From Escherichia phage T7, in sequence record OL964749.1: DNA of 37,063 bases. One strand, written 5' to 3'. Positions 532 through 37,063 of the stretch are shown piece by piece. The position numbers and the translations under genes were made by a program. How positions within the stretch are numbered: position 1 is the stretch's first letter; every line of letters begins with the position of its first letter. The notes beneath the pieces are model-generated. The model was not told the origin of the DNA. It searched no databases and saw only the letters and a program-made list of their open reading frames with translations.

Positions 532-642
532 TCGAGAGGGACACGGCGAATAGCCATCCCAATCGACACCGGGGTCAACCGGGCGCACAGTGCCTTCTAG
601 GTGACTTAAGCGCACCACGGCACATAAGGTGAAACAAAACGG

Positions 643-853: not shown

Positions 854-1549
854 ATGGCTATGTCTAACATGACTTACAACAACGTTTTCGACCACGCTTA
901 CGAAATGCTGAAAGAAAACATCCGTTATGATGACATCCGTGACACTGATGACCTGCACGATGCTATTCACATGGCTGCCGATAATGCAGTTCCGCACTAC
1001 TACGCTGACATCTTTAGCGTAATGGCAAGTGAGGGCATTGACCTTGAGTTCGAAGACTCTGATCTGATGCCTGACACCAAGGACGTAATCCGCATCCTGC
1101 AAGCGCGTATCTATGAGCAATTAACGATTGACCTCTGGGAAGACGCAGAAGACTTGCTCAATGAATACTTGGAGGAAGTCGAGGAAGTCGCACGACAGAA
1201 AGAAATTGACCGCGCTAAGGCCCGTAAAGAACGTCACGAGGGGCGCTTAGAGGCACGCAGATTCAAACGTCGCAACCGCAAGGCACGTAAAGCACACAAA
1301 GCTAAGCGCGAAAGAATGCTTGCTGCGTGGCGATGGGCTGAACGTCAAGAACGGCGTAACCATGAGGTAGCTGTAGATGTACTAGGAAGAACCAATAACG
1401 CTATGCTCCGGGTCAACATGTCCTCTGGGGACTTTAAGGCGCTTGAGGAACGAATCGCGCTGCACTGGCGTAATGCTGACCGGATGGCTATCGCTAATGG
1501 TCTTACGCTCAACATTGATAAGCAACTTGACGCAATGTTAATGGGCTGA
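854..1549 (+). CDS. In-frame fusion: Ocr (gene 0.3 anti-restriction DNA mimic, residues 1 to about 111) joined to the C-terminal roughly 120 aa of gp0.7 (host transcription shut-off domain); kinase domain absent
   Basis: 231-aa ORF; N-terminus [19 protein letters not shown]...[10 protein letters not shown] equals T7 Ocr, then a basic Arg/Lys-rich tail ending 71 bp before gene 1, as gene 0.7 does in T7. Confidence 0.85.
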
Positions 1550-7350: not shown

Positions 7351-8049
7351 ATGGCTAAGAAGATTTTCACCTCTGCGCTGGGTACCGCTGAACCTTACGC
7401 TTACATCGCCAAGCCGGACTACGGCAACGAAGAGCGTGGCTTTGGGAACCCTCGTGGTGTCTATAAAGTTGACCTGACTATTCCCAACAAAGACCCGCGC
7501 TGCCAGCGTATGGTCGATGAAATCGTGAAGTGTCACGAAGAGGCTTATGCTGCTGCCGTTGAGGAATACGAAGCTAATCCACCTGCTGTAGCTCGTGGTA
7601 AGAAACCGCTGAAACCGTATGAGGGTGACATGCCGTTCTTCGATAACGGTGACGGTACGACTACCTTTAAGTTCAAATGCTACGCGTCTTTCCAAGACAA
7701 GAAGACCAAAGAGACCAAGCACATCAATCTTGTTGTGGTTGACTCAAAAGGTAAGAAGATGGAAGACGTTCCGATTATCGGTGGTGGCTCTAAGCTGAAA
7801 GTTAAATATTCTCTGGTTCCATACAAGTGGAACACTGCTGTAGGTGCGAGCGTTAAGCTGCAACTGGAATCCGTGATGCTGGTCGAACTGGCTACCTTTG
7901 GTGGCGGTGAAGACGATTGGGCTGACGAAGTTGAAGAGAACGGCTATGTTGCCTCTGGTTCTGCCAAAGCGAGCAAACCACGCGACGAAGAAAGCTGGGA
8001 CGAAGACGACGAAGAGTCCGAGGAAGCAGACGAAGACGGAGACTTCTAA
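7351..8049 (+). CDS. Single-stranded DNA-binding protein gp2.5
   Basis: 232-aa ORF MAKKIFTSALGTAEPYAYIAKPDYGNEERGFGNPRGVYKVDLTIPN... with acidic C-terminal tail ending ...EADEDGDF. Confidence 0.95.
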   Translation: MAKKIFTSALGTAEPYAYIAKPDYGNEERGFGNPRGVYKVDLTIPNKDPRCQRMVDEIVKCHEEAYAAAVEEYEANPPAVARGKKPLKPYEGDMPFFDNGDGTTTFKFKCYASFQDKKTKETKHINLVVVDSKGKKMEDVPIIGGGSKLKVKYSLVPYKWNTAVGASVKLQLESVMLVELATFGGGEDDWADEVEENGYVASGSAKASKPRDEESWDEDDEESEEADEDGDF

Positions 8050-8469
8050 GTGGAACTGCGGGAGAAAATCCTTGAGCGAATCAAGGTGACTTCCTCTGGG
8101 TGTTGGGAGTGGCAGGGCGCTACGAACAATAAAGGGTACGGGCAGGTGTGGTGCAGCAATACCGGAAAGGTTGTCTACTGTCATCGCGTAATGTCTAATG
8201 CTCCGAAAGGTTCTACCGTCCTGCACTCCTGTGATAATCCATTATGTTGTAACCCTGAACACCTATCCATAGGAACTCCAAAAGAGAACTCCACTGACAT
8301 GGTAAATAAGGGTCGCTCACACAAGGGGTATAAACTTTCAGACGAAGACGTAATGGCAATCATGGAGTCCAGCGAGTCCAATGTATCCTTAGCTCGCACC
8401 TATGGTGTCTCCCAACAGACTATTTGTGATATACGCAAATGGAGGCGACATGGCAGGTTACGGCGCTAA
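8050..8469 (+). CDS. Gene 2.8 protein (139 aa), HNH-type endonuclease-like
   Basis: ORF starting at GTG directly after the 2.5 stop; contains CHRVMSNAPKGSTVLHSCDNPLCCNPEHL, an HNH-like Cys/His motif. Confidence 0.7.
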   Translation: MELREKILERIKVTSSGCWEWQGATNNKGYGQVWCSNTGKVVYCHRVMSNAPKGSTVLHSCDNPLCCNPEHLSIGTPKENSTDMVNKGRSHKGYKLSDEDVMAIMESSESNVSLARTYGVSQQTICDIRKWRRHGRLRR

Positions 8470-9355: not shown

Positions 9356-9377
9356 TAATTGAACTCACTAAAGGGAG

Positions 9378-9378
<1 letters not shown>
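9356..9378 (+). promoter_or_regulatory. T7 promoter phi3.8
   Basis: TAATTGAACTCACTAAAGGGAGA; +1 near 9373. Confidence 0.85.
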
Positions 9379-11239
<1,861 letters not shown>

Positions 11240-11242
<3 letters not shown>

Positions 11243-11262
11243 TACGACTCACTAAAGGCCAC
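11240..11262 (+). promoter_or_regulatory. T7 promoter phi4.3 with altered initially transcribed sequence (GGCCAC instead of GGAGAC)
   Basis: TAATACGACTCACTAAAGG then CCACACAG; consensus through +2, consistent with a deletion junction at +3. Confidence 0.75.
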
Positions 11263-11380
11263 ACAGTCACGCGCTCTGGCGATTCGCTCCAACGAACTGG
11301 CTGACAGTGCATCCACTAAAGTTACCGAGGCTGCCCGTGTGGCAAACCAAGCTCAACAGCTTTCCAAATTCTTTGAGTAA
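11259..11380 (+). pseudogene. Remnant of gene 4.3 lacking RBS, start codon and about 30 N-terminal codons
   Basis: In-frame segment ATQSRALAIRSNELADSASTKVTEAARVANQAQQLSKFFE without an initiator; about 100 bp missing relative to reference. Confidence 0.65.
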
Positions 11381-11399
11381 TCAAACAGGAGAAACCATT

Positions 11400-11669
11400 A
11401 TGTCTAACGTAGCTGAAACTATCCGTCTATCCGATACAGCTGACCAGTGGAACCGTCGAGTCCACATCAACGTTCGCAACGGTAAGGCGACTATGGTTTA
11501 CCGCTGGAAGGACTCTAAGTCCTCTAAGAATCACACTCAGCGTATGACGTTGACAGATGAGCAAGCACTGCGTCTGGTCAATGCGCTTACCAAAGCTGCC
11601 GTGACAGCAATTCATGAAGCTGGTCGCGTCAATGAAGCTATGGCTATCCTCGACAAGATTGATAACTAA
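11400..11669 (+). CDS. Gene 4.5 protein (89 aa)
   Basis: ORF MSNVAETIRLSDTADQWNRRVHINVRNGKATMVYRWKDSK... preceded by CAGGAGAA; the track start at 11307 is an upstream extension. Confidence 0.85.
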   Translation: MSNVAETIRLSDTADQWNRRVHINVRNGKATMVYRWKDSKSSKNHTQRMTLTDEQALRLVNALTKAAVTAIHEAGRVNEAMAILDKIDN

Positions 11670-11679
11670 GAGTGGTATC

Positions 11680-11713
11680 CTCAAGGTCGCCAAAGTGGTG
11701 GCCTTCATGAATA
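11680..11713 (+). promoter_or_regulatory. RNase III site R4.7
   Basis: Hairpin CAAGGTCGCCAAAGTGGTGGCCTT just downstream of the 4.5 stop. Confidence 0.55.
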
Positions 11714-11736
11714 CTATTCGACTCACTATAGGAGAT
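11714..11736 (+). promoter_or_regulatory. T7 promoter phi4.7
   Basis: CTATTCGACTCACTATAGGAGAT; +1 near 11731, 12 nt before the gene 4.7 ATG. Confidence 0.7.
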
Positions 11737-11742
11737 ATTACC

Positions 11743-11994
11743 ATGCGTGACCCTAAAGTTATCCAAGCAGAAATCGCTAAACTGGAAGCTGAACTGGAGG
11801 ACGTTAAGTACCATGAAGCTAAGACTCGCTCCGCTGTTCACATCTTGAAGAACTTAGGCTGGACTTGGACAAGACAGACTGGCTGGAAGAAACCAGAAGT
11901 TACCAAGCTGAGTCATAAGGTGTTCGATAAGGACACTATGACCCACATCAAGGCTGGTGATTGGGTTAAGGTTGACATGGGAGTTGTAACATGA
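11743..11994 (+). CDS. Gene 4.7 protein, truncated: 83 aa against 135 aa in reference T7
   Basis: ORF MRDPKVIQAEIAKLEAELEDVKYHEAKTRS...VDMGVVT; about 100 bp missing near the 3' end, with the frame-shifted original stop about 55 nt downstream. Confidence 0.7.
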   Translation: MRDPKVIQAEIAKLEAELEDVKYHEAKTRSAVHILKNLGWTWTRQTGWKKPEVTKLSHKVFDKDTMTHIKAGDWVKVDMGVVT

Positions 11995-12068
11995 TTCACA
12001 CAGGTTTCTTGACAGTTGTTTCATATGAAGAGATTGTTAAGTCACGATAATCAATAGGAGAAATCAAT

Positions 12069-14183
12069 ATGATCGTTTCTGACATCGAAGCTAACGCCCT
12101 CTTAGAGAGCGTCACTAAGTTCCACTGCGGGGTTATCTACGACTACTCCACCGCTGAGTACGTAAGCTACCGTCCGAGTGACTTCGGTGCGTATCTGGAT
12201 GCGCTGGAAGCCGAGGTTGCACGAGGCGGTCTTATTGTGTTCCACAACGGTCACAAGTATGACGTTCCTGCATTGACCAAACTGGCAAAGTTGCAATTGA
12301 ACCGAGAGTTCCACCTTCCTCGTGAGAACTGTATTGACACCCTTGTGTTGTCACGTTTGATTCATTCCAACCTCAAGGACACCGATATGGGTCTTCTGCG
12401 TTCCGGCAAGTTGCCCGGAAAACGCTTTGGGTCTCACGCTTTGGAGGCGTGGGGTTATCGCTTAGGCGAGATGAAGGGTGAATACAAAGACGACTTTAAG
12501 CGTATGCTTGAAGAGCAGGGTGAAGAATACGTTGACGGAATGGAGTGGTGGAACTTCAACGAAGAGATGATGGACTATAACGTTCAGGACGTTGTGGTAA
12601 CTAAAGCTCTCCTTGAGAAGCTACTCTCTGACAAACATTACTTCCCTCCTGAGATTGACTTTACGGACGTAGGATACACTACGTTCTGGTCAGAATCCCT
12701 TGAGGCCGTTGACATTGAACATCGTGCTGCATGGCTGCTCGCTAAACAAGAGCGCAACGGGTTCCCGTTTGACACAAAAGCAATCGAAGAGTTGTACGTA
12801 GAGTTAGCTGCTCGCCGCTCTGAGTTGCTCCGTAAATTGACCGAAACGTTCGGCTCGTGGTATCAGCCTAAAGGTGGCACTGAGATGTTCTGCCATCCGC
12901 GAACAGGTAAGCCACTACCTAAATACCCTCGCATTAAGACACCTAAAGTTGGTGGTATCTTTAAGAAGCCTAAGAACAAGGCACAGCGAGAAGGCCGTGA
13001 GCCTTGCGAACTTGATACCCGCGAGTACGTTGCTGGTGCTCCTTACACCCCAGTTGAACATGTTGTGTTTAACCCTTCGTCTCGTGACCACATTCAGAAG
13101 AAACTCCAAGAGGCTGGGTGGGTCCCGACCAAGTACACCGATAAGGGTGCTCCTGTGGTGGACGATGAGGTACTCGAAGGAGTACGTGTAGATGACCCTG
13201 AGAAGCAAGCCGCTATCGACCTCATTAAAGAGTACTTGATGATTCAGAAGCGAATCGGACAGTCTGCTGAGGGAGACAAAGCATGGCTTCGTTATGTTGC
13301 TGAGGATGGTAAGATTCATGGTTCTGTTAACCCTAATGGAGCAGTTACGGGTCGTGCGACCCATGCGTTCCCAAACCTTGCGCAAATTCCGGGTGTACGT
13401 TCTCCTTATGGAGAGCAGTGTCGCGCTGCTTTTGGCGCTGAGCACCATTTGGATGGGATAACTGGTAAGCCTTGGGTTCAGGCTGGCATCGACGCATCCG
13501 GTCTTGAGCTACGCTGCTTGGCTCACTTCATGGCTCGCTTTGATAACGGCGAGTACGCTCACGAGATTCTTAACGGCGACATCCACACTAAGAACCAGAT
13601 AGCTGCTGAACTACCTACCCGAGATAACGCTAAGACGTTCATCTATGGGTTCCTCTATGGTGCTGGTGATGAGAAGATTGGACAGATTGTTGGTGCTGGT
13701 AAAGAGCGCGGTAAGGAACTCAAGAAGAAATTCCTTGAGAACACCCCCGCGATTGCAGCACTCCGCGAGTCTATCCAACAGACACTTGTCGAGTCCTCTC
13801 AATGGGTAGCTGGTGAGCAACAAGTCAAGTGGAAACGCCGCTGGATTAAAGGTCTGGATGGTCGTAAGGTACACGTTCGTAGTCCTCACGCTGCCTTGAA
13901 TACCCTACTGCAATCTGCTGGTGCTCTCATCTGCAAACTGTGGATTATCAAGACCGAAGAGATGCTCGTAGAGAAAGGCTTGAAGCATGGCTGGGATGGG
14001 GACTTTGCGTACATGGCATGGGTACATGATGAAATCCAAGTAGGCTGCCGTACCGAAGAGATTGCTCAGGTGGTCATTGAGACCGCACAAGAAGCGATGC
14101 GCTGGGTTGGAGACCACTGGAACTTCCGGTGTCTTCTGGATACCGAAGGTAAGATGGGTCCTAATTGGGCGATTTGCCACTGA
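12069..14183 (+). CDS. DNA polymerase gp5 (family A, thioredoxin-binding, with 3'-5' exonuclease)
   Basis: 704-aa [39 protein letters not shown]... with exonuclease and polymerase motifs; matches T7 gp5. Confidence 0.98.
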
Positions 14184-14198
14184 TACAGGAGGCTACTC

Positions 14199-14402
14199 AT
14201 GAACGAAAGACACTTAACAGGTGCTGCTTCTGAAATGCTAGTAGCCTACAAATTTACCAAAGCTGGGTACACTGTCTATTACCCTATGCTGACTCAGAGT
14301 AAAGAGGACTTGGTTGTATGTAAGGATGGTAAATTTAGTAAGGTTCAGGTTAAAACATTGTGGTTGACGAAGATGTGCTTATTTTCACATGGGACGAAGT
14401 AA
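14199..14402 (+). CDS. Gene 5.3 (HNH endonuclease-like), frameshift-truncated to 67 aa against 118 aa in reference
   Basis: N-terminus MNERHLTGAASEMLVAYKFTKAGYTVYYPMLTQSKEDLVVCKDGKFSKVQVKT matches gp5.3, then a short out-of-frame tail; about 100 bp missing. Confidence 0.7.
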   Translation: MNERHLTGAASEMLVAYKFTKAGYTVYYPMLTQSKEDLVVCKDGKFSKVQVKTLWLTKMCLFSHGTK

Positions 14403-14466
14403 AAGGTAAGACATCCATGTGTGTCGGCAAGAGAAACAAAGGCATAAAACTATAGGAGAAATTATT

Positions 14467-14766
14467 ATGGCTATGACAAAGAAATTTAAAGTGTCCTTCG
14501 ACGTTACCGCAAAGATGTCGTCTGACGTTCAGGCAATCTTAGAGAAAGATATGCTGCATCTATGTAAGCAGGTCGGCTCAGGTGCGATTGTCCCCAATGG
14601 TAAACAGAAGGAAATGATTGTCCAGTTCCTGACACACGGTATGGAAGGATTGATGACATTCGTAGTACGTACATCATTTCGTGAGGCCATTAAGGACATG
14701 CACGAAGAGTATGCAGATAAGGACTCTTTCAAACAATCTCCTGCAACAGTACGGGAGGTGTTCTGA
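14467..14766 (+). CDS. Gene 5.5 protein (99 aa, H-NS-binding)
   Basis: ORF MAMTKKFKVSFDVTAKMSSDVQAILEKDMLHLCKQVGS...; the track start at 14419 is an upstream extension. Confidence 0.9.
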   Translation: MAMTKKFKVSFDVTAKMSSDVQAILEKDMLHLCKQVGSGAIVPNGKQKEMIVQFLTHGMEGLMTFVVRTSFREAIKDMHEEYADKDSFKQSPATVREVF

Positions 14767-14975
14767 TGTCTGACTACCTGAAAGTGCTGCAAGCAATCAA
14801 AAGTTGCCCTAAGACTTTCCAGTCCAACTATGTACGGAACAATGCGAGCCTCGTAGCGGAGGCCGCTTCCCGTGGTCACATCTCGTGCCTGACTACTAGT
14901 GGACGTAACGGTGGCGCTTGGGAAATCACTGCTTCCGGTACTCGCTTTCTGAAACGAATGGGAGGATGTGTCTAA
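14766..14975 (+). CDS. Gene 5.7 protein (69 aa)
   Basis: ORF MSDYLKVLQAIKSCPKTFQSNYVRNNASLVAEAASRGHISCL...; start overlaps the 5.5 stop. Confidence 0.85.
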   Translation: MSDYLKVLQAIKSCPKTFQSNYVRNNASLVAEAASRGHISCLTTSGRNGGAWEITASGTRFLKRMGGCV

Positions 14976-15133
14976 TGTCTCGTGACCTTGTGACTATTCC
15001 ACGCGATGTGTGGAACGATATACAGGGCTACATCGACTCTCTGGAACGTGAGAACGATAGCCTTAAGAATCAACTAATGGAAGCTGACGAATACGTAGCG
15101 GAACTAGAGGAGAAACTTAATGGCACTTCTTGA
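14975..15133 (+). CDS. Gene 5.9 protein (52 aa, RecBCD inhibitor)
   Basis: ORF MSRDLVTIPRDVWNDIQGYIDSLERENDSLKNQLMEADEYVAELEEKLNGTS; TAATG overlap with the 5.7 stop. Confidence 0.85.
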   Translation: MSRDLVTIPRDVWNDIQGYIDSLERENDSLKNQLMEADEYVAELEEKLNGTS

Positions 15134-16022
15134 CCTTAAACAATTCTATGAGTTACGTGAAGGCTGCGACGACAAGGGTATCCTTGTGATGGACGGCGAC
15201 TGGCTGGTCTTCCAAGCTATGAGTGCTGCTGAGTTTGATGCCTCTTGGGAGGAAGAGATTTGGCACCGATGCTGTGACCACGCTAAGGCCCGTCAGATTC
15301 TTGAGGATTCCATTAAGTCCTACGAGACCCGTAAGAAGGCTTGGGCAGGTGCTCCAATTGTCCTTGCGTTCACCGATAGTGTTAACTGGCGTAAAGAACT
15401 GGTTGACCCGAACTATAAGGCTAACCGTAAGGCCGTGAAGAAACCTGTAGGGTACTTTGAGTTCCTTGATGCTCTCTTTGAGCGCGAAGAGTTCTATTGC
15501 ATCCGTGAGCCTATGCTTGAGGGTGATGACGTTATGGGAGTTATTGCTTCCAATCCGTCTGCCTTCGGTGCTCGTAAGGCTGTAATCATCTCTTGCGATA
15601 AGGACTTTAAGACCATCCCTAACTGTGACTTCCTGTGGTGTACCACTGGTAACATCCTGACTCAGACCGAAGAGTCCGCTGACTGGTGGCACCTCTTCCA
15701 GACCATCAAGGGTGACATCACTGATGGTTACTCAGGGATTGCTGGATGGGGTGATACCGCCGAGGACTTCTTGAATAACCCGTTCATAACCGAGCCTAAA
15801 ACGTCTGTGCTTAAGTCCGGTAAGAACAAAGGCCAAGAGGTTACTAAATGGGTTAAACGCGACCCTGAGCCTCATGAGACGCTTTGGGACTGCATTAAGT
15901 CCATTGGCGCGAAGGCTGGTATGACCGAAGAGGATATTATCAAGCAGGGCCAAATGGCTCGAATCCTACGGTTCAACGAGTACAACTTTATTGACAAGGA
16001 GATTTACCTGTGGAGACCGTAG
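15120..16022 (+). CDS. 5'-3' exonuclease gp6
   Basis: 300-aa ORF MALLDLKQFYELREGCDDKGILVMDGDWLVFQAMSAAEFD...; FEN-family exonuclease matching T7 gp6. Confidence 0.95.
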   Translation: MALLDLKQFYELREGCDDKGILVMDGDWLVFQAMSAAEFDASWEEEIWHRCCDHAKARQILEDSIKSYETRKKAWAGAPIVLAFTDSVNWRKELVDPNYKANRKAVKKPVGYFEFLDALFEREEFYCIREPMLEGDDVMGVIASNPSAFGARKAVIISCDKDFKTIPNCDFLWCTTGNILTQTEESADWWHLFQTIKGDITDGYSGIAGWGDTAEDFLNNPFITEPKTSVLKSGKNKGQEVTKWVKRDPEPHETLWDCIKSIGAKAGMTEEDIIKQGQMARILRFNEYNFIDKEIYLWRP

Positions 16023-16123
16023 CGTATATTGGTCTGGGTCTTTGTGTTCTCGGAGTGTGCCTCATTTCGTGGGGCCTTTGTGACTTAGCCAGAATAATCA
16101 AGTCGTTACACGACACTAAGTGA
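16010..16123 (+). CDS. Gene 6.3 protein (37 aa, hydrophobic), apparent GTG start
   Basis: Small ORF (M)ETVAYIGLGLCVLGVCLISWGLCDLARIIKSLHDTK overlapping the gene 6 stop; position matches T7 gene 6.3. Confidence 0.5.
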   Translation: METVAYIGLGLCVLGVCLISWGLCDLARIIKSLHDTK

Positions 16124-16143
16124 TAAACTCAAGGTCCCTAAAT

Positions 16144-16166
16144 TAATACGACTCACTATAGGGAGA
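16144..16166 (+). promoter_or_regulatory. T7 class III promoter phi6.5
   Basis: TAATACGACTCACTATAGGGAGA, perfect consensus; +1 near 16161. Confidence 0.95.
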
Positions 16167-16220
16167 TAGGGGCCTTTACGATTATTACTTTAAGATTTAA
16201 CTCTAAGAGGAATCTTTATT

Positions 16221-16475
16221 ATGTTAACACCTATTAACCAATTACTTAAGAACCCTAACGATATTCCAGATGTACCTCGTGCAACCGCTGAGTATCTACA
16301 GGTTCGATTCAACTATGCGTACCTCGAAGCGTCTGGTCATATAGGACTTATGCGTGCTAATGGTTGTAGTGAGGCCCACATCTTGGGTTTCATTCAGGGC
16401 CTACAGTATGCCTCTAACGTCATTGACGAGATTGAGTTACGCAAGGAACAACTAAGAGATGATGGGGAGGATTGA
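16221..16475 (+). CDS. Gene 6.5 protein (84 aa)
   Basis: [43 protein letters not shown]... preceded by AAGAGGAA. Confidence 0.85.
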
Positions 16476-16479
16476 CACT

Positions 16480-16746
16480 ATGTGTTTCTCACCGAAAATT
16501 AAAACTCCGAAGATGGATACCAATCAGATTCGAGCCGTTGAGCCAGCGCCTCTGACCCAAGAAGTGTCAAGCGTGGAGTTCGGTGGGTCTTCTGATGAGA
16601 CGGATACCGAGGGCACCGAAGTGTCTGGACGCAAAGGCCTCAAGGTCGAACGTGATGATTCCGTAGCGAAGTCTAAAGCCAGCGGCAATGGCTCCGCTCG
16701 TATGAAATCTTCCATCCGTAAGTCCGCATTTGGAGGTAAGAAGTGA
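16480..16746 (+). CDS. Gene 6.7 protein (88 aa, virion protein)
   Basis: ORF MCFSPKIKTPKMDTNQIRAVEPAPLTQEVSSVEFGG...; the track start at 16459 is an upstream extension. Confidence 0.8.
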   Translation: MCFSPKIKTPKMDTNQIRAVEPAPLTQEVSSVEFGGSSDETDTEGTEVSGRKGLKVERDDSVAKSKASGNGSARMKSSIRKSAFGGKK

Positions 16747-19184: not shown

Positions 19185-20108
19185 ATGGCTGAATCTAATG
19201 CAGACGTATATGCATCTTTTGGCGTGAACTCCGCTGTGATGTCTGGTGGTTCCGTTGAGGAACATGAGCAGAACATGCTGGCTCTTGATGTTGCTGCCCG
19301 TGATGGCGATGATGCAATCGAGTTAGCGTCAGACGAAGTGGAAACAGAACGTGACCTGTATGACAACTCTGACCCGTTCGGTCAAGAGGATGACGAAGGC
19401 CGCATTCAGGTTCGTATCGGTGATGGCTCTGAGCCGACCGATGTGGACACTGGAGAAGAAGGCGTTGAGGGCACCGAAGGTTCCGAAGAGTTTACCCCAC
19501 TGGGCGAGACTCCAGAAGAACTGGTAGCTGCCTCTGAGCAACTTGGTGAGCACGAAGAGGGCTTCCAAGAGATGATTAACATTGCTGCTGAGCGTGGCAT
19601 GAGTGTCGAGACCATTGAGGCTATCCAGCGTGAGTACGAGGAGAACGAAGAGTTGTCCGCCGAGTCCTACGCTAAGCTGGCTGAAATTGGCTACACGAAG
19701 GCTTTCATTGACTCGTATATCCGTGGTCAAGAAGCTCTGGTGGAGCAGTACGTAAACAGTGTCATTGAGTACGCTGGTGGTCGTGAACGTTTTGATGCAC
19801 TGTATAACCACCTTGAGACGCACAACCCTGAGGCTGCACAGTCGCTGGATAATGCGTTGACCAATCGTGACTTAGCGACCGTTAAGGCTATCATCAACTT
19901 GGCTGGTGAGTCTCGCGCTAAGGCGTTCGGTCGTAAGCCAACTCGTAGTGTGACTAATCGTGCTATTCCGGCTAAACCTCAGGCTACCAAGCGTGAAGGC
20001 TTTGCGGACCGTAGCGAGATGATTAAAGCTATGAGTGACCCTCGGTATCGCACAGATGCCAACTATCGTCGTCAAGTCGAACAGAAAGTAATCGATTCGA
20101 ACTTCTGA
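19185..20108 (+). CDS. Capsid assembly (scaffolding) protein gp9
   Basis: 307-aa acidic ORF MAESNADVYASFGVNSAVMSGGSVEEHEQNMLALD...; matches T7 gp9. Confidence 0.95.
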   Translation: MAESNADVYASFGVNSAVMSGGSVEEHEQNMLALDVAARDGDDAIELASDEVETERDLYDNSDPFGQEDDEGRIQVRIGDGSEPTDVDTGEEGVEGTEGSEEFTPLGETPEELVAASEQLGEHEEGFQEMINIAAERGMSVETIEAIQREYEENEELSAESYAKLAEIGYTKAFIDSYIRGQEALVEQYVNSVIEYAGGRERFDALYNHLETHNPEAAQSLDNALTNRDLATVKAIINLAGESRAKAFGRKPTRSVTNRAIPAKPQATKREGFADRSEMIKAMSDPRYRTDANYRRQVEQKVIDSNF

Positions 20109-20121
20109 TAGACTTCGAAAT

Positions 20122-20144
20122 TAATACGACTCACTATAGTGAGA
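20122..20144 (+). promoter_or_regulatory. T7 class III promoter phi10 carrying a G-to-T change at +2 (TATAGTGAGA instead of TATAGGGAGA)
   Basis: TAATACGACTCACTATAGTGAGACCACAACGGTTTCCCTCTAGAAATAATTTTGTTTAACTTTAAGAAGGAGATATACATATG; otherwise identical to the phi10 promoter and leader used in pET vectors. Confidence 0.9.
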
Positions 20145-20201
20145 CCACAACGGTTTCCCTCTAGAAATAATTTTGTTTAACTTTAAGAAGGAGATATACA
20201 T

Positions 20202-21239
20202 ATGGCTAGCATGACTGGTGGACAGCAAATGGGTACTAACCAAGGTAAAGGTGTAGTTGCTGCTGGAGATAAACTGGCGTTGTTCTTGAAGGTATTTGGC
20301 GGTGAAGTCCTGACTGCGTTCGCTCGTACCTCCGTGACCACTTCTCGCCACATGGTACGTTCCATCTCCAGCGGTAAATCCGCTCAGTTCCCTGTTCTGG
20401 GTCGCACTCAGGCAGCGTATCTGGCTCCGGGCGAGAACCTCGACGATAAACGTAAGGACATCAAACACACCGAGAAGGTAATCACCATTGACGGTCTCCT
20501 GACGGCTGACGTTCTGATTTATGATATTGAGGACGCGATGAACCACTACGACGTTCGCTCTGAGTATACCTCTCAGTTGGGTGAATCTCTGGCGATGGCT
20601 GCGGATGGTGCGGTTCTGGCTGAGATTGCCGGTCTGTGTAACGTGGAAAGCAAATATAATGAGAACATCGAGGGCTTAGGTACTGCTACCGTAATTGAGA
20701 CCACTCAGAACAAGGCCGCACTTACCGACCAAGTTGCGCTGGGTAAGGAGATTATTGCGGCTCTGACTAAGGCTCGTGCGGCTCTGACCAAGAACTATGT
20801 TCCGGCTGCTGACCGTGTGTTCTACTGTGACCCAGATAGCTACTCTGCGATTCTGGCAGCACTGATGCCGAACGCAGCAAACTACGCTGCTCTGATTGAC
20901 CCTGAGAAGGGTTCTATCCGCAACGTTATGGGCTTTGAGGTTGTAGAAGTTCCGCACCTCACCGCTGGTGGTGCTGGTACCGCTCGTGAGGGCACTACTG
21001 GTCAGAAGCACGTCTTCCCTGCCAATAAAGGTGAGGGTAATGTCAAGGTTGCTAAGGACAACGTTATCGGCCTGTTCATGCACCGCTCTGCGGTAGGTAC
21101 TGTTAAGCTGCGTGACTTGGCTCTGGAGCGCGCTCGCCGTGCTAACTTCCAAGCGGACCAGATTATCGCTAAGTACGCAATGGGCCACGGTGGTCTTCGC
21201 CCAGAAGCTGCTGGTGCAGTGGTTTTCAAAGTGGAGTAA
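20202..21239 (+). CDS. Major capsid protein gp10A
   Basis: 345-aa ORF MASMTGGQQMGTNQGKGVVAAGDKLALFLKVFGGEVLTAFARTSV...; identical to T7 gp10A including the T7-tag N-terminus. Confidence 0.98.
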   Translation: MASMTGGQQMGTNQGKGVVAAGDKLALFLKVFGGEVLTAFARTSVTTSRHMVRSISSGKSAQFPVLGRTQAAYLAPGENLDDKRKDIKHTEKVITIDGLLTADVLIYDIEDAMNHYDVRSEYTSQLGESLAMAADGAVLAEIAGLCNVESKYNENIEGLGTATVIETTQNKAALTDQVALGKEIIAALTKARAALTKNYVPAADRVFYCDPDSYSAILAALMPNAANYAALIDPEKGSIRNVMGFEVVEVPHLTAGGAGTAREGTTGQKHVFPANKGEGNVKVAKDNVIGLFMHRSAVGTVKLRDLALERARRANFQADQIIAKYAMGHGGLRPEAAGAVVFKVE

Positions 21240-27829: not shown

Positions 27830-30800
27830 ATGGATAAGTACGATAAGAACGTACCAAGTGATTATGATGGTCTGTTCCAAAAGGCTGCTGATGCCAACGG
27901 GGTCTCTTATGACCTTTTACGTAAAGTCGCTTGGACAGAATCACGATTTGTGCCTACAGCAAAATCTAAGACTGGACCATTAGGCATGATGCAATTTACC
28001 AAGGCAACCGCTAAGGCCCTCGGTCTGCGAGTTACCGATGGTCCAGACGACGACCGACTGAACCCTGAGTTAGCTATTAATGCTGCCGCTAAGCAACTTG
28101 CAGGTCTGGTAGGGAAGTTTGATGGCGATGAACTCAAAGCTGCCCTTGCGTACAACCAAGGCGAGGGACGCTTGGGTAATCCACAACTTGAGGCGTACTC
28201 TAAGGGAGACTTCGCATCAATCTCTGAGGAGGGACGTAACTACATGCGTAACCTTCTGGATGTTGCTAAGTCACCTATGGCTGGACAGTTGGAAACTTTT
28301 GGTGGCATAACCCCAAAGGGTAAAGGCATTCCGGCTGAGGTAGGATTGGCTGGAATTGGTCACAAGCAGAAAGTAACACAGGAACTTCCTGAGTCCACAA
28401 GTTTTGACGTTAAGGGTATCGAACAGGAGGCTACGGCGAAACCATTCGCCAAGGACTTTTGGGAGACCCACGGAGAAACACTTGACGAGTACAACAGTCG
28501 TTCAACCTTCTTCGGATTCAAAAATGCTGCCGAAGCTGAACTCTCCAACTCAGTAGCTGGGATGGCTTTCCGTGCTGGTCGTCTCGATAATGGTTTTGAT
28601 GTGTTTAAAGACACCATTACGCCGACTCGCTGGAACTCTCACATCTGGACTCCAGAGGAGTTAGAGAAGATTCGAACAGAGGTTAAGAACCCTGCGTACA
28701 TCAACGTTGTAACTGGTGGTTCCCCTGAGAACCTCGATGACCTCATTAAATTGGCTAACGAGAACTTTGAGAATGACTCCCGCGCTGCCGAGGCTGGCCT
28801 AGGTGCCAAACTGAGTGCTGGTATTATTGGTGCTGGTGTGGACCCGCTTAGCTATGTTCCTATGGTCGGTGTCACTGGTAAGGGCTTTAAGTTAATCAAT
28901 AAGGCTCTTGTAGTTGGTGCCGAAAGTGCTGCTCTGAACGTTGCATCCGAAGGTCTCCGTACCTCCGTAGCTGGTGGTGACGCAGACTATGCGGGTGCTG
29001 CCTTAGGTGGCTTTGTGTTTGGCGCAGGCATGTCTGCAATCAGTGACGCTGTAGCTGCTGGACTGAAACGCAGTAAACCAGAAGCTGAGTTCGACAATGA
29101 GTTCATCGGTCCTATGATGCGATTGGAAGCCCGTGAGACAGCACGAAACGCCAACTCTGCGGACCTCTCTCGGATGAACACTGAGAACATGAAGTTTGAA
29201 GGTGAACATAATGGTGTCCCTTATGAGGACTTACCAACAGAGAGAGGTGCCGTGGTGTTACATGATGGCTCCGTTCTAAGTGCAAGCAACCCAATCAACC
29301 CTAAGACTCTAAAAGAGTTCTCCGAGGTTGACCCTGAGAAGGCTGCGCGAGGAATCAAACTGGCTGGGTTCACCGAGATTGGCTTGAAGACCTTGGGGTC
29401 TGACGATGCTGACATCCGTAGAGTGGCTATCGACCTCGTTCGCTCTCCTACTGGTATGCAGTCTGGTGCCTCAGGTAAGTTCGGTGCAACAGCTTCTGAC
29501 ATCCATGAGAGACTTCATGGTACTGACCAGCGTACTTATAATGACTTGTACAAAGCAATGTCTGACGCTATGAAAGACCCTGAGTTCTCTACTGGCGGCG
29601 CTAAGATGTCCCGTGAAGAAACTCGATACACTATCTACCGTAGAGCGGCACTAGCTATTGAGCGTCCAGAACTACAGAAGGCACTCACTCCGTCTGAGAG
29701 AATCGTTATGGACATCATTAAGCGTCACTTTGACACCAAGCGTGAACTTATGGAAAACCCAGCAATATTCGGTAACACAAAGGCTGTGAGTATCTTCCCT
29801 GAGAGTCGCCACAAAGGTACTTACGTTCCTCACGTATATGACCGTCATGCCAAGGCGCTGATGATTCAACGCTACGGTGCCGAAGGTTTGCAGGAAGGGA
29901 TTGCCCGCTCATGGATGAACAGCTACGTCTCCAGACCTGAGGTCAAGGCCAGAGTCGATGAGATGCTTAAGGAATTACACGGGGTGAAGGAAGTAACACC
30001 AGAGATGGTAGAGAAGTACGCTATGGATAAGGCTTATGGTATCTCCCACTCAGACCAGTTCACCAACAGTTCCATAATAGAAGAGAACATTGAGGGCTTA
30101 GTAGGTATCGAGAATAACTCATTCCTTGAGGCACGTAACTTGTTTGATTCGGACCTATCCATCACTATGCCAGACGGACAGCAATTCTCAGTGAATGACC
30201 TAAGGGACTTCGATATGTTCCGCATCATGCCAGCGTATGACCGCCGTGTCAATAGTGACATCGCCATCATGGGGTCTACTGGTAAAACCACTAAGGAACT
30301 TAAGGATGAGATTTTGGCTCTCAAAGCGAAAGCTGAGGGAGACGGTAAGAAGACTGGCGAGGTACATGCTTTAATGGATACCGTTAAGATTCTTACTGGT
30401 CGTGCTAGACGCAATCAGGACACTGTGTGGGAAACCTCACTGCGTGCCATCAATGACCTAGGGTTCTTCGCTAAGAACGCCTACATGGGTGCTCAGAACA
30501 TTACGGAGATTGCTGGGATGATTGTCACTGGTAACGTTCGTGCTCTAGGGCATGGTATCCCAATTCTGCGTGATACACTCTACAAGTCTAAACCAGTTTC
30601 AGCTAAGGAACTCAAGGAACTCCATGCGTCTCTGTTCGGGAAGGAGGTGGACCAGTTGATTCGGCCTAAACGTGCTGACATTGTGCAGCGCCTAAGGGAA
30701 GCAACTGATACCGGACCTGCCGTGGCGAACATCGTAGGGACCTTGAAGTATTCAACACAGGAACTGGCTGCTCGCTCTCCGTGGACTAAGCTACTGGACG

Positions 30801-31786
30801 GAACCACTAACTACCTTCTGGATGCTGCGCGTCAAGGTATGCTTGGGGATGTTATTAGTGCCACCCTAACAGGTAAGACTACCCGCTGGGAGAAAGAAGG
30901 CTTCCTTCGTGGTGCCTCCGTAACTCCTGAGCAGATGGCTGGCATCAAGTCTCTCATCAAGGAACATATGGTACGCGGTGAGGACGGGAAGTTTACCGTT
31001 AAGGACAAGCAAGCGTTCTCTATGGACCCACGGGCTATGGACTTATGGAGACTGGCTGACAAGGTAGCTGATGAGGCAATGCTGCGTCCACATAAGGTGT
31101 CCTTACAGGATTCCCATGCGTTCGGAGCACTAGGTAAGATGGTTATGCAGTTTAAGTCTTTCACTATCAAGTCCCTTAACTCTAAGTTCCTGCGAACCTT
31201 CTATGATGGATACAAGAACAACCGAGCGATTGACGCTGCGCTGAGCAGCATCACCTCTATGGGTCTCGCTGGTGGTTTCTATGCTATGGCTGCACACGTC
31301 AGAGCATACGCTCTGCCTAAGGAGAAACGTAAGGAGTACTTGGAGCGTGCACTGGACCCAACCATGATTGCCCACGCTGCGTTATCTCGTAGTTCTCAAT
31401 TGGGTGTTCCTTTGGCTATGGTTGACCTAGTTGGTGGTGTTTTAGGGTTCGAGTCCTCCAAGATGGCTCGCTCTACGATTCTACCTAAGGACACCGTGAA
31501 GGAACGTGACCCAAACAAACCGTACACCTCTAGAGAGGTAATGGGCGCTATGGGTTCAAACCTTCTGGAACAGATGCCTTCGGCTGGCTTTGTGGCTAAC
31601 GTAGGGGCTACCTTAATGAATGCTGCTGGCGTGGTCAACTCACCTAATAAAGCAACCGAGCAGGACTTCATGACTGGTCTTATGAACTCCACAAAAGAGT
31701 TAGTACCGAACGACCCATTGACTCAACAGCTTGTGTTGAAGATTTATGAGGCGAACGGTGTTAACTTGAGGGAGCGTAGGAAATAA
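27830..31786 (+). CDS. Internal core protein gp16 with N-terminal lytic transglycosylase domain
   Basis: 1318-aa ORF MDKYDKNVPSDYDGLFQKAADANGVSYDLLRKVAWTESRF... containing an SLT-like motif. Confidence 0.95.
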   Translation: MDKYDKNVPSDYDGLFQKAADANGVSYDLLRKVAWTESRFVPTAKSKTGPLGMMQFTKATAKALGLRVTDGPDDDRLNPELAINAAAKQLAGLVGKFDGDELKAALAYNQGEGRLGNPQLEAYSKGDFASISEEGRNYMRNLLDVAKSPMAGQLETFGGITPKGKGIPAEVGLAGIGHKQKVTQELPESTSFDVKGIEQEATAKPFAKDFWETHGETLDEYNSRSTFFGFKNAAEAELSNSVAGMAFRAGRLDNGFDVFKDTITPTRWNSHIWTPEELEKIRTEVKNPAYINVVTGGSPENLDDLIKLANENFENDSRAAEAGLGAKLSAGIIGAGVDPLSYVPMVGVTGKGFKLINKALVVGAESAALNVASEGLRTSVAGGDADYAGAALGGFVFGAGMSAISDAVAAGLKRSKPEAEFDNEFIGPMMRLEARETARNANSADLSRMNTENMKFEGEHNGVPYEDLPTERGAVVLHDGSVLSASNPINPKTLKEFSEVDPEKAARGIKLAGFTEIGLKTLGSDDADIRRVAIDLVRSPTGMQSGASGKFGATASDIHERLHGTDQRTYNDLYKAMSDAMKDPEFSTGGAKMSREETRYTIYRRAALAIERPELQKALTPSERIVMDIIKRHFDTKRELMENPAIFGNTKAVSIFPESRHKGTYVPHVYDRHAKALMIQRYGAEGLQEGIARSWMNSYVSRPEVKARVDEMLKELHGVKEVTPEMVEKYAMDKAYGISHSDQFTNSSIIEENIEGLVGIENNSFLEARNLFDSDLSITMPDGQQFSVNDLRDFDMFRIMPAYDRRVNSDIAIMGSTGKTTKELKDEILALKAKAEGDGKKTGEVHALMDTVKILTGRARRNQDTVWETSLRAINDLGFFAKNAYMGAQNITEIAGMIVTGNVRALGHGIPILRDTLYKSKPVSAKELKELHASLFGKEVDQLIRPKRADIVQRLREATDTGPAVANIVGTLKYSTQELAARSPWTKLLDGTTNYLLDAARQGMLGDVISATLTGKTTRWEKEGFLRGASVTPEQMAGIKSLIKEHMVRGEDGKFTVKDKQAFSMDPRAMDLWRLADKVADEAMLRPHKVSLQDSHAFGALGKMVMQFKSFTIKSLNSKFLRTFYDGYKNNRAIDAALSSITSMGLAGGFYAMAAHVRAYALPKEKRKEYLERALDPTMIAHAALSRSSQLGVPLAMVDLVGGVLGFESSKMARSTILPKDTVKERDPNKPYTSREVMGAMGSNLLEQMPSAGFVANVGATLMNAAGVVNSPNKATEQDFMTGLMNSTKELVPNDPLTQQLVLKIYEANGVNLRERRK

Positions 31787-36912: not shown

Positions 36913-37063
36913 TCTCACAGTGTACGGACCTAAAGTTCCCCCATAGGGGTACCTAAAGCCCAGCCAATCACCTAAAGTCAATGACCTTGAGGGTTCCCTA
37001 AGGGTTGGGGATGACCCTTGGGTTTGTCTTTGGGTGTTACCTTGAGTGTCTCTCTGTGTCCCT
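36913..37063. repeat. Right terminal direct repeat (TR)
   Basis: 36914-37063 is identical to 1-150; the preceding T at 36913 corresponds to the first TR base missing from the window start. Confidence 0.95.

Follow-up and report, generated by a model that had tools for sequence, protein, structure and literature searches.

Gene 4.7 of this Escherichia phage T7 genome lacks an internal segment of exactly 100 bp, which shifts the reading frame and truncates the product. The deletion is almost certainly a cassette-100 CRISPR edit made with CiPGr, a published phage genome-reduction method (Yuan et al., NAR 2022; PMC9825161; doi 10.1093/nar/gkac1168), rather than a natural or spontaneous variant. 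The window analysed here is sequence record OL964749.1, a genome of 37,063 bp, which is 7.2% smaller than the 39,937 bp of reference T7 (NC_001604/V01146). An initial annotation, made from the letters of the sequence, had recognised the truncation; its cause, which that annotation could not see, is a designed edit by CRISPR/Cas9 and homologous recombination. The edit was deliberate and has been published before, which makes the truncation an ordinary one.

Gene 4.7 locus and its truncated product

Alignment of window positions 11700-12120 with T7 13883-14404 revealed a sole difference, the absence of T7 14172-14271 (100 bp) from gene 4.7. In a whole-genome BLAST comparison with V01146, T7 13440-16641 showed no change besides this deletion, which is flanked by blocks of 100% identity, 732 bp long on one side (T7 13440-14171) and 2370 bp long on the other (T7 14272-16641). 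T7 records matched a 1.2-kb query around gene 4.7 at 100%, always as two pieces spanning 100 extra bases in the record. The wild-type gene (NP_041981.1; T7 13927-14334, 135 aa) and the gene in the window have the promoter, ribosome-binding site, start codon, first 82 codons and 3′ 63 nt in common; they differ in that 100 internal bp have gone, the frame has shifted and the C-terminal residues are lost. The locus contains the following features:

11714-11736, plus strand: intact phi4.7 promoter for T7 RNA polymerase, the same as in T7 around the annotated start at 13915, with its +1 G at 11731
11743-11994, plus strand: truncated gene 4.7 coding sequence, 83 codons plus TGA (open reading frame list, T7 alignment and reference translation)
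11987/11988: deletion junction, T7 14171 joined to T7 14272 with zero microhomology and no insertion (alignment and BLAST)
11995-12050, plus strand: what remains of the 3′ end of gene 4.7, untranslated and out of frame, including the original TAA at 12048-12050 (alignment and frame arithmetic)
12056-12071, plus strand: ribosome-binding site (AGGAG, 12056-12060) and start codon (ATG, 12069) of gene 5, which encodes DNA polymerase, neither reached by the deletion

The initial annotation had described a gene 4.7 that begins 12 nt after the phi4.7 start site as in T7, ends after 83 codons (...DWVKVDMGVVT) and falls short of a reference product given as 135 aa, and each of these points was borne out. 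The ATG at 11743 lies 12 nt past the +1 at 11731 (13927 and 13915, respectively, in T7), the open reading frame list gives 11743-11994, and the reference translation is indeed 135 aa, not 83. The product consists of 82 native residues and one new Thr: codon 82 straddles the junction (GT/A) and retains Val, codon 83 is ACA (Thr, 11989-11991) and TGA follows at 11992-11994, with the loss of 53 C-terminal residues. A loss of 100 bp is not divisible by three and so shifts the reading frame, and the original stop is found, as had been surmised, out of frame at 12048-12050, where (12048 − 11743) mod 3 = 2.

A frameshifting 100-bp deletion had been postulated around 11976-11992, together with a spacing to gene 5 about 100 bp shorter than in the reference. 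Alignment to the reference placed the junction inside that interval, and the distance from the gene 4.7 start to the gene 5 start is 326 nt here vs 426 nt in T7. Gene 5 itself (12069-14183) encodes 704 aa, the T7 length, and no annotated promoters or terminators lie inside the deleted 100 bp.

Five 100-bp deletions and the CiPGr design

CiPGr relies on chip-synthesised cassettes of 200 bp, each containing a 20-bp spacer and a 100-bp recombination template with 50-bp arms, and on a second plasmid that supplies SpCas9 and lambda-Red (PMC9825161). Cas9 cuts unedited genomes, leaving as survivors those phages that have recombined with the plasmid-borne two-arm template (PMC9825161). Disruption of gp4.7 and gp5.3 of T7, tracked by PCR, provides a worked example in the paper (PMC9825161).

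Within and near every deleted segment, we listed all SpCas9 protospacers, defined as 20 nt followed by NGG. Five deletions in the genome measure exactly 100 bp, and each has a protospacer at positions 41-60 of the missing segment, an arrangement of 40+20+40:

T7 14172-14271, gene 4.7: protospacer GCACAAGTGTCATACATCAC at T7 14212-14231, PAM AGG, plus strand, centred at an offset of 40
T7 8163-8262, gene 1.6/1.7 boundary, junction 6455/6456: protospacer 8203-8222, PAM GGG, plus strand
T7 13341-13440, phi4.3 start and 5′ end of gene 4.3, junction 11256/11257: protospacer 13381-13400, PAM TGG, minus strand
T7 16642-16741, gene 5.3, junction 14357/14358: protospacer 16682-16701, PAM AGG, plus strand
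T7 39565-39664, 27 bp past the stop codon of gene 19.5, junction 36799/36800: protospacer 39605-39624, PAM AGG, plus strand

At the gene 4.3 junction, a 3-bp AGG ambiguity allows four placements of the deletion; these were tested directly, and the centred protospacer holds for the placement 13341-13440. In a random 100-bp window of T7, the chance of a centred protospacer is 0.061 on the plus strand and 0.103 on either strand, and all four deletions with unambiguous junctions are centred (P ~1.4e-5 for the plus strand, ~1.1e-4 for either strand). The 40+20+40 geometry is not accidental.

The deletion in gene 4.7 shares its 100-bp size and its centring on a protospacer with the cassette-100 disruptions of CiPGr: exactly 100 bp has been removed, the junction is scarless and an NGG protospacer lies inside the deleted segment. 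Moreover, gp4.7 is among the genes targeted, being named as an example (PMC9825161), and GenBank clones whose names and design point to this study carry the same junction.

On the published scheme, a pTarget plasmid of the cassette-100 library in the host would express an sgRNA against the gene 4.7 protospacer and would also bear the 100-bp repair template. Judging from the geometry, the spacer would be GCACAAGTGTCATACATCAC and the template would consist of two 50-bp arms, T7 14122-14171 and 14272-14321, which correspond in the window to:

11938-11987, plus strand: putative left homology arm ATGACCCACATCAAGGCTGGTGATTGGGTTAAGGTTGACATGGGAGTTGT, identical to T7 14122-14171 (placed from the published 2 × 50 bp design)
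11988-12037, plus strand: putative right homology arm AACATGATTCACACAGGTTTCTTGACAGTTGTTTCATATGAAGAGATTGT, identical to T7 14272-14321 (placed from the published 2 × 50 bp design)

Incoming wild-type T7 genomes would be cut by SpCas9, and template-recombined phages alone, with lambda-Red provided on the Cas9 plasmid, would lose the protospacer and escape cutting. Recombination would take out a segment of exactly 100 bp with the protospacer at its middle, and the ensuing frame shift would leave residues 1-82 of gp4.7 plus one Thr ahead of a TGA, at the cost of the C-terminal 53 residues. As gene 4.7 is non-essential, the phage would remain viable; phi4.7 and gene 5, together with its ribosome-binding site, are unaffected.

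Other deletions and sibling clones

Whole-genome comparison separated two classes of deletion: those of class A have zero microhomology (three ambiguous bases at gene 4.3) and designed-looking sizes, and those of class B have perfect repeats of 9-13 bp. Two class A and three class B deletions were found in addition to those listed above:

T7 7608-7763, junction 6056/6057: class A, 156 bp, coding sequence of gene 1.4 removed exactly from start to stop, zero microhomology
T7 19848-20216, junction 17451/17452: class A, 369 bp, gene 7.7 removed from its start to 24 nt before its stop, zero microhomology
T7 541-644, window 574-582: class B, 104 bp, 9-bp direct repeat GTCAACCGG
T7 1244-2723, repeat at window 1173-1185, open reading frame 854-1549: class B, 1480 bp, 13-bp direct repeats AGGAAGTCGAGGA
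T7 11177-11453, window 9370-9378: class B, 277 bp, 9-bp repeat AAAGGGAGA

The losses of gene 1.4 and gene 7.7, the latter leaving the last 24 nt of the gene ahead of gene 8, resemble ‘cassette-gene’ edits and occur alongside five cassette-100 edits. The presence of such whole-gene deletions, in a clone whose name points to the cassette-100 library, counts against a simple cassette-100 origin: cassette libraries were kept separate in the CiPGr methods, which do not explain the mixture (PMC9825161).

The principal alternative is that the gene 4.7 deletion arose spontaneously, through replication slippage or illegitimate recombination in serial passage. Spontaneous loss between short direct repeats is classical in T7 deletion mutants, which likewise lose non-essential DNA and stay viable. 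The three deletions in this same genome that look spontaneous and lie between direct repeats of 9-13 bp (T7 541-644, 1244-2723 and 11177-11453) therefore indicate that deletions do arise spontaneously in the lineage. However, no direct repeat is present at 11987/11988 (0 bp of microhomology), in contrast to those three deletions, and a round length and a centred Cas9 target set the gene 4.7 deletion apart from the classical mutants. Its exact 100 bp recurs in four other deletions, all five being centred on a protospacer as in the published design, and we regard a spontaneous origin as very improbable next to a designed edit.

Several consequences of the class B deletions may be read from the genome. 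Loss of T7 1244-2723 joins the first ~111 residues of gene 0.3 (ocr), which carry G70D, to the last ~120 residues of gene 0.7 in a continuous frame, creating a chimeric open reading frame of 231 aa in which genes 0.4-0.6 and the kinase domain of 0.7 have been lost; this chimera is labelled ‘protein kinase’ in OL964748.1. Loss of T7 541-644, which looks spontaneous, not designed, takes with it the start site of the E. coli promoter A2 (T7 626). Loss of T7 11177-11453 costs gene 3.8, which encodes an HNH endonuclease, two-thirds of its length from the 5′ end; here a look-alike sequence within the gene has recombined with the region around the phi3.8 promoter start.

The junction in gene 4.7 is shared with two sibling records. 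A 44-mer comprising 22 nt from each side of the junction, to which wild-type T7 cannot seed a megablast match, matched only two of 50,697 phage records: OL964748.1, titled ‘Mutant Escherichia phage T7 clone T7_1t1’, and OL964750.1, ‘clone T7_1t3’. A junction 63-mer is present exactly in both, and both annotate a 252-nt coding sequence, ‘hypothetical protein T7p28’, which is the same truncated gene 4.7. Nothing differs at this gene among the clones, which have a base-identical junction and the same 83-aa product. The first 25 kb of the genome also finds its best matches in the two siblings, which share with the genome a background that includes the 0.3-0.7 fusion and deletions in 1.4, 1.6/1.7, 3.8, 4.3 and after 19.5.

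Compared with T7_1t1, the genome keeps a 75-bp phi1.1A-phi1.1B segment, which T7_1t1 has lost, and carries an extra 100-bp deletion in gene 5.3 plus a few substitutions, with no other differences. T7_1t3, compared at the junction and by annotation, differs at least in that gene 7.7 is present there and missing here. The genome is probably a third clone of this series, T7_1t2, lying between the two deposited siblings, and from the clone naming, extent of reduction and edit design we infer that the OL9647xx records belong to the study of Yuan et al. In that study, clones designated T7_100_t# were chosen for fast killing, and the genome of one, T7_100_t2, was reduced by 7.1% (PMC9825161); the 7.2% seen here lies close to this figure, in favour of the designed edit, although the two do not match exactly.

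The identical junction in two separately deposited clones also bears on whether the deletion might be an artefact of sequencing or assembly, with gene 4.7 intact in the real phage. Small indels in the terminal repeats and the left-end repeat region could be assembly noise, but the gene 4.7 sequence is non-repetitive, an artefact would not measure exactly 100 bp and be centred on a protospacer, and the authors detected disruption of gp4.7 by PCR (PMC9825161), all of which makes such an error scarcely credible.

The terminal repeat (1-151 and 36913-37063) measures 151 bp vs 160 bp, because each end has lost 8 bp, CCTTCGGT, and a single base from a G-run. The left-end repeat array (172-200) has an additional unit of the TATCCTCCTAAAGT type, and the CATTGTCTTTATTAATA segment is partly duplicated in ~33 bp directly upstream of phiOL (390-422). 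These three changes could represent laboratory-strain variation, passage mutations or assembly noise. Gene 7.3 carries a 12-bp in-frame deletion, CGTTAAGAAAGT (T7 19579-19590, window ~17195), presumably common to T7_1t1 and T7_1t3, where the coding sequence is annotated as 288 nt vs 300 nt.

The genome also differs from T7 by ~39 point substitutions, mostly missense and many of them G>T. Four fall in T7 RNA polymerase (gene 1; 1918, 2170, 2689 and 3050), five missense and one synonymous substitution lie in gp16 (30254-31407), and the tail fibre protein gp17 carries N158D and K214E (32330 and 32498), the former also reported in another line, T7_T12 (PMC9825161). Mutations, mostly missense, were reported to accumulate over hundreds of transfers (PMC9825161), and the substitutions seen here fit the accumulation during transfers described in the paper. 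The whole genome is engineered and serially passaged; its round-number deletions, fusions and missing genes are therefore best taken as laboratory edits or passage mutations, not natural variation.

Family and function of gp4.7

Wild-type gp4.7 is assigned by PHROGs to phrog_4023, annotated as of unknown function, and covers positions 1-133 of the 134 in its profile. The 83-aa product, which keeps residues 1-82, does not give a full-length match and is a truncated member of the family. A Pfam search of gp4.7 returned sub-threshold matches only (HicA_toxin, 13.6 bits vs a cut-off of 27), and no functional study of gp4.7 emerged from a search of the literature. Gene 4.7 is a non-essential class II gene.

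That a non-essential gene with no Pfam family above cut-off and a PHROG of unknown function might exist naturally in a short form among T7-like phages carries next to no probability, given that T7 gp4.7 matches the phrog_4023 profile from end to end, every other T7 record inspected has the extra 100 bp, the junction occurs among the 50,697 phage records in two engineered clones only, and the rest of the genome is >99.5% identical to T7 and carries other engineered edits.

The deletion leaves gp4.7 knocked out, or at least C-terminally truncated. Translation of gene 4.7 now ends 74 nt ahead of the start of gene 5 vs 18 nt in T7, and slightly faster host killing has been reported for the T7_100 ‘t’ clones (PMC9825161). 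It is conceivable, though we think it very improbable, that the 82-residue fragment keeps some partial or altered activity, or that the earlier stop changes expression of DNA polymerase, in either case aiding killing; the edited gene would then be something other than a simple null.

The 40+20+40 geometry offers a simple signature by which CiPGr cassette-100 edits may be spotted in other deposited genomes. As a designed knock-out in a published synthetic-biology strain, the truncation carries little biological weight, confirming only the result already reported, that T7 tolerates the loss of the C-terminal 40% of gp4.7 (PMC9825161).
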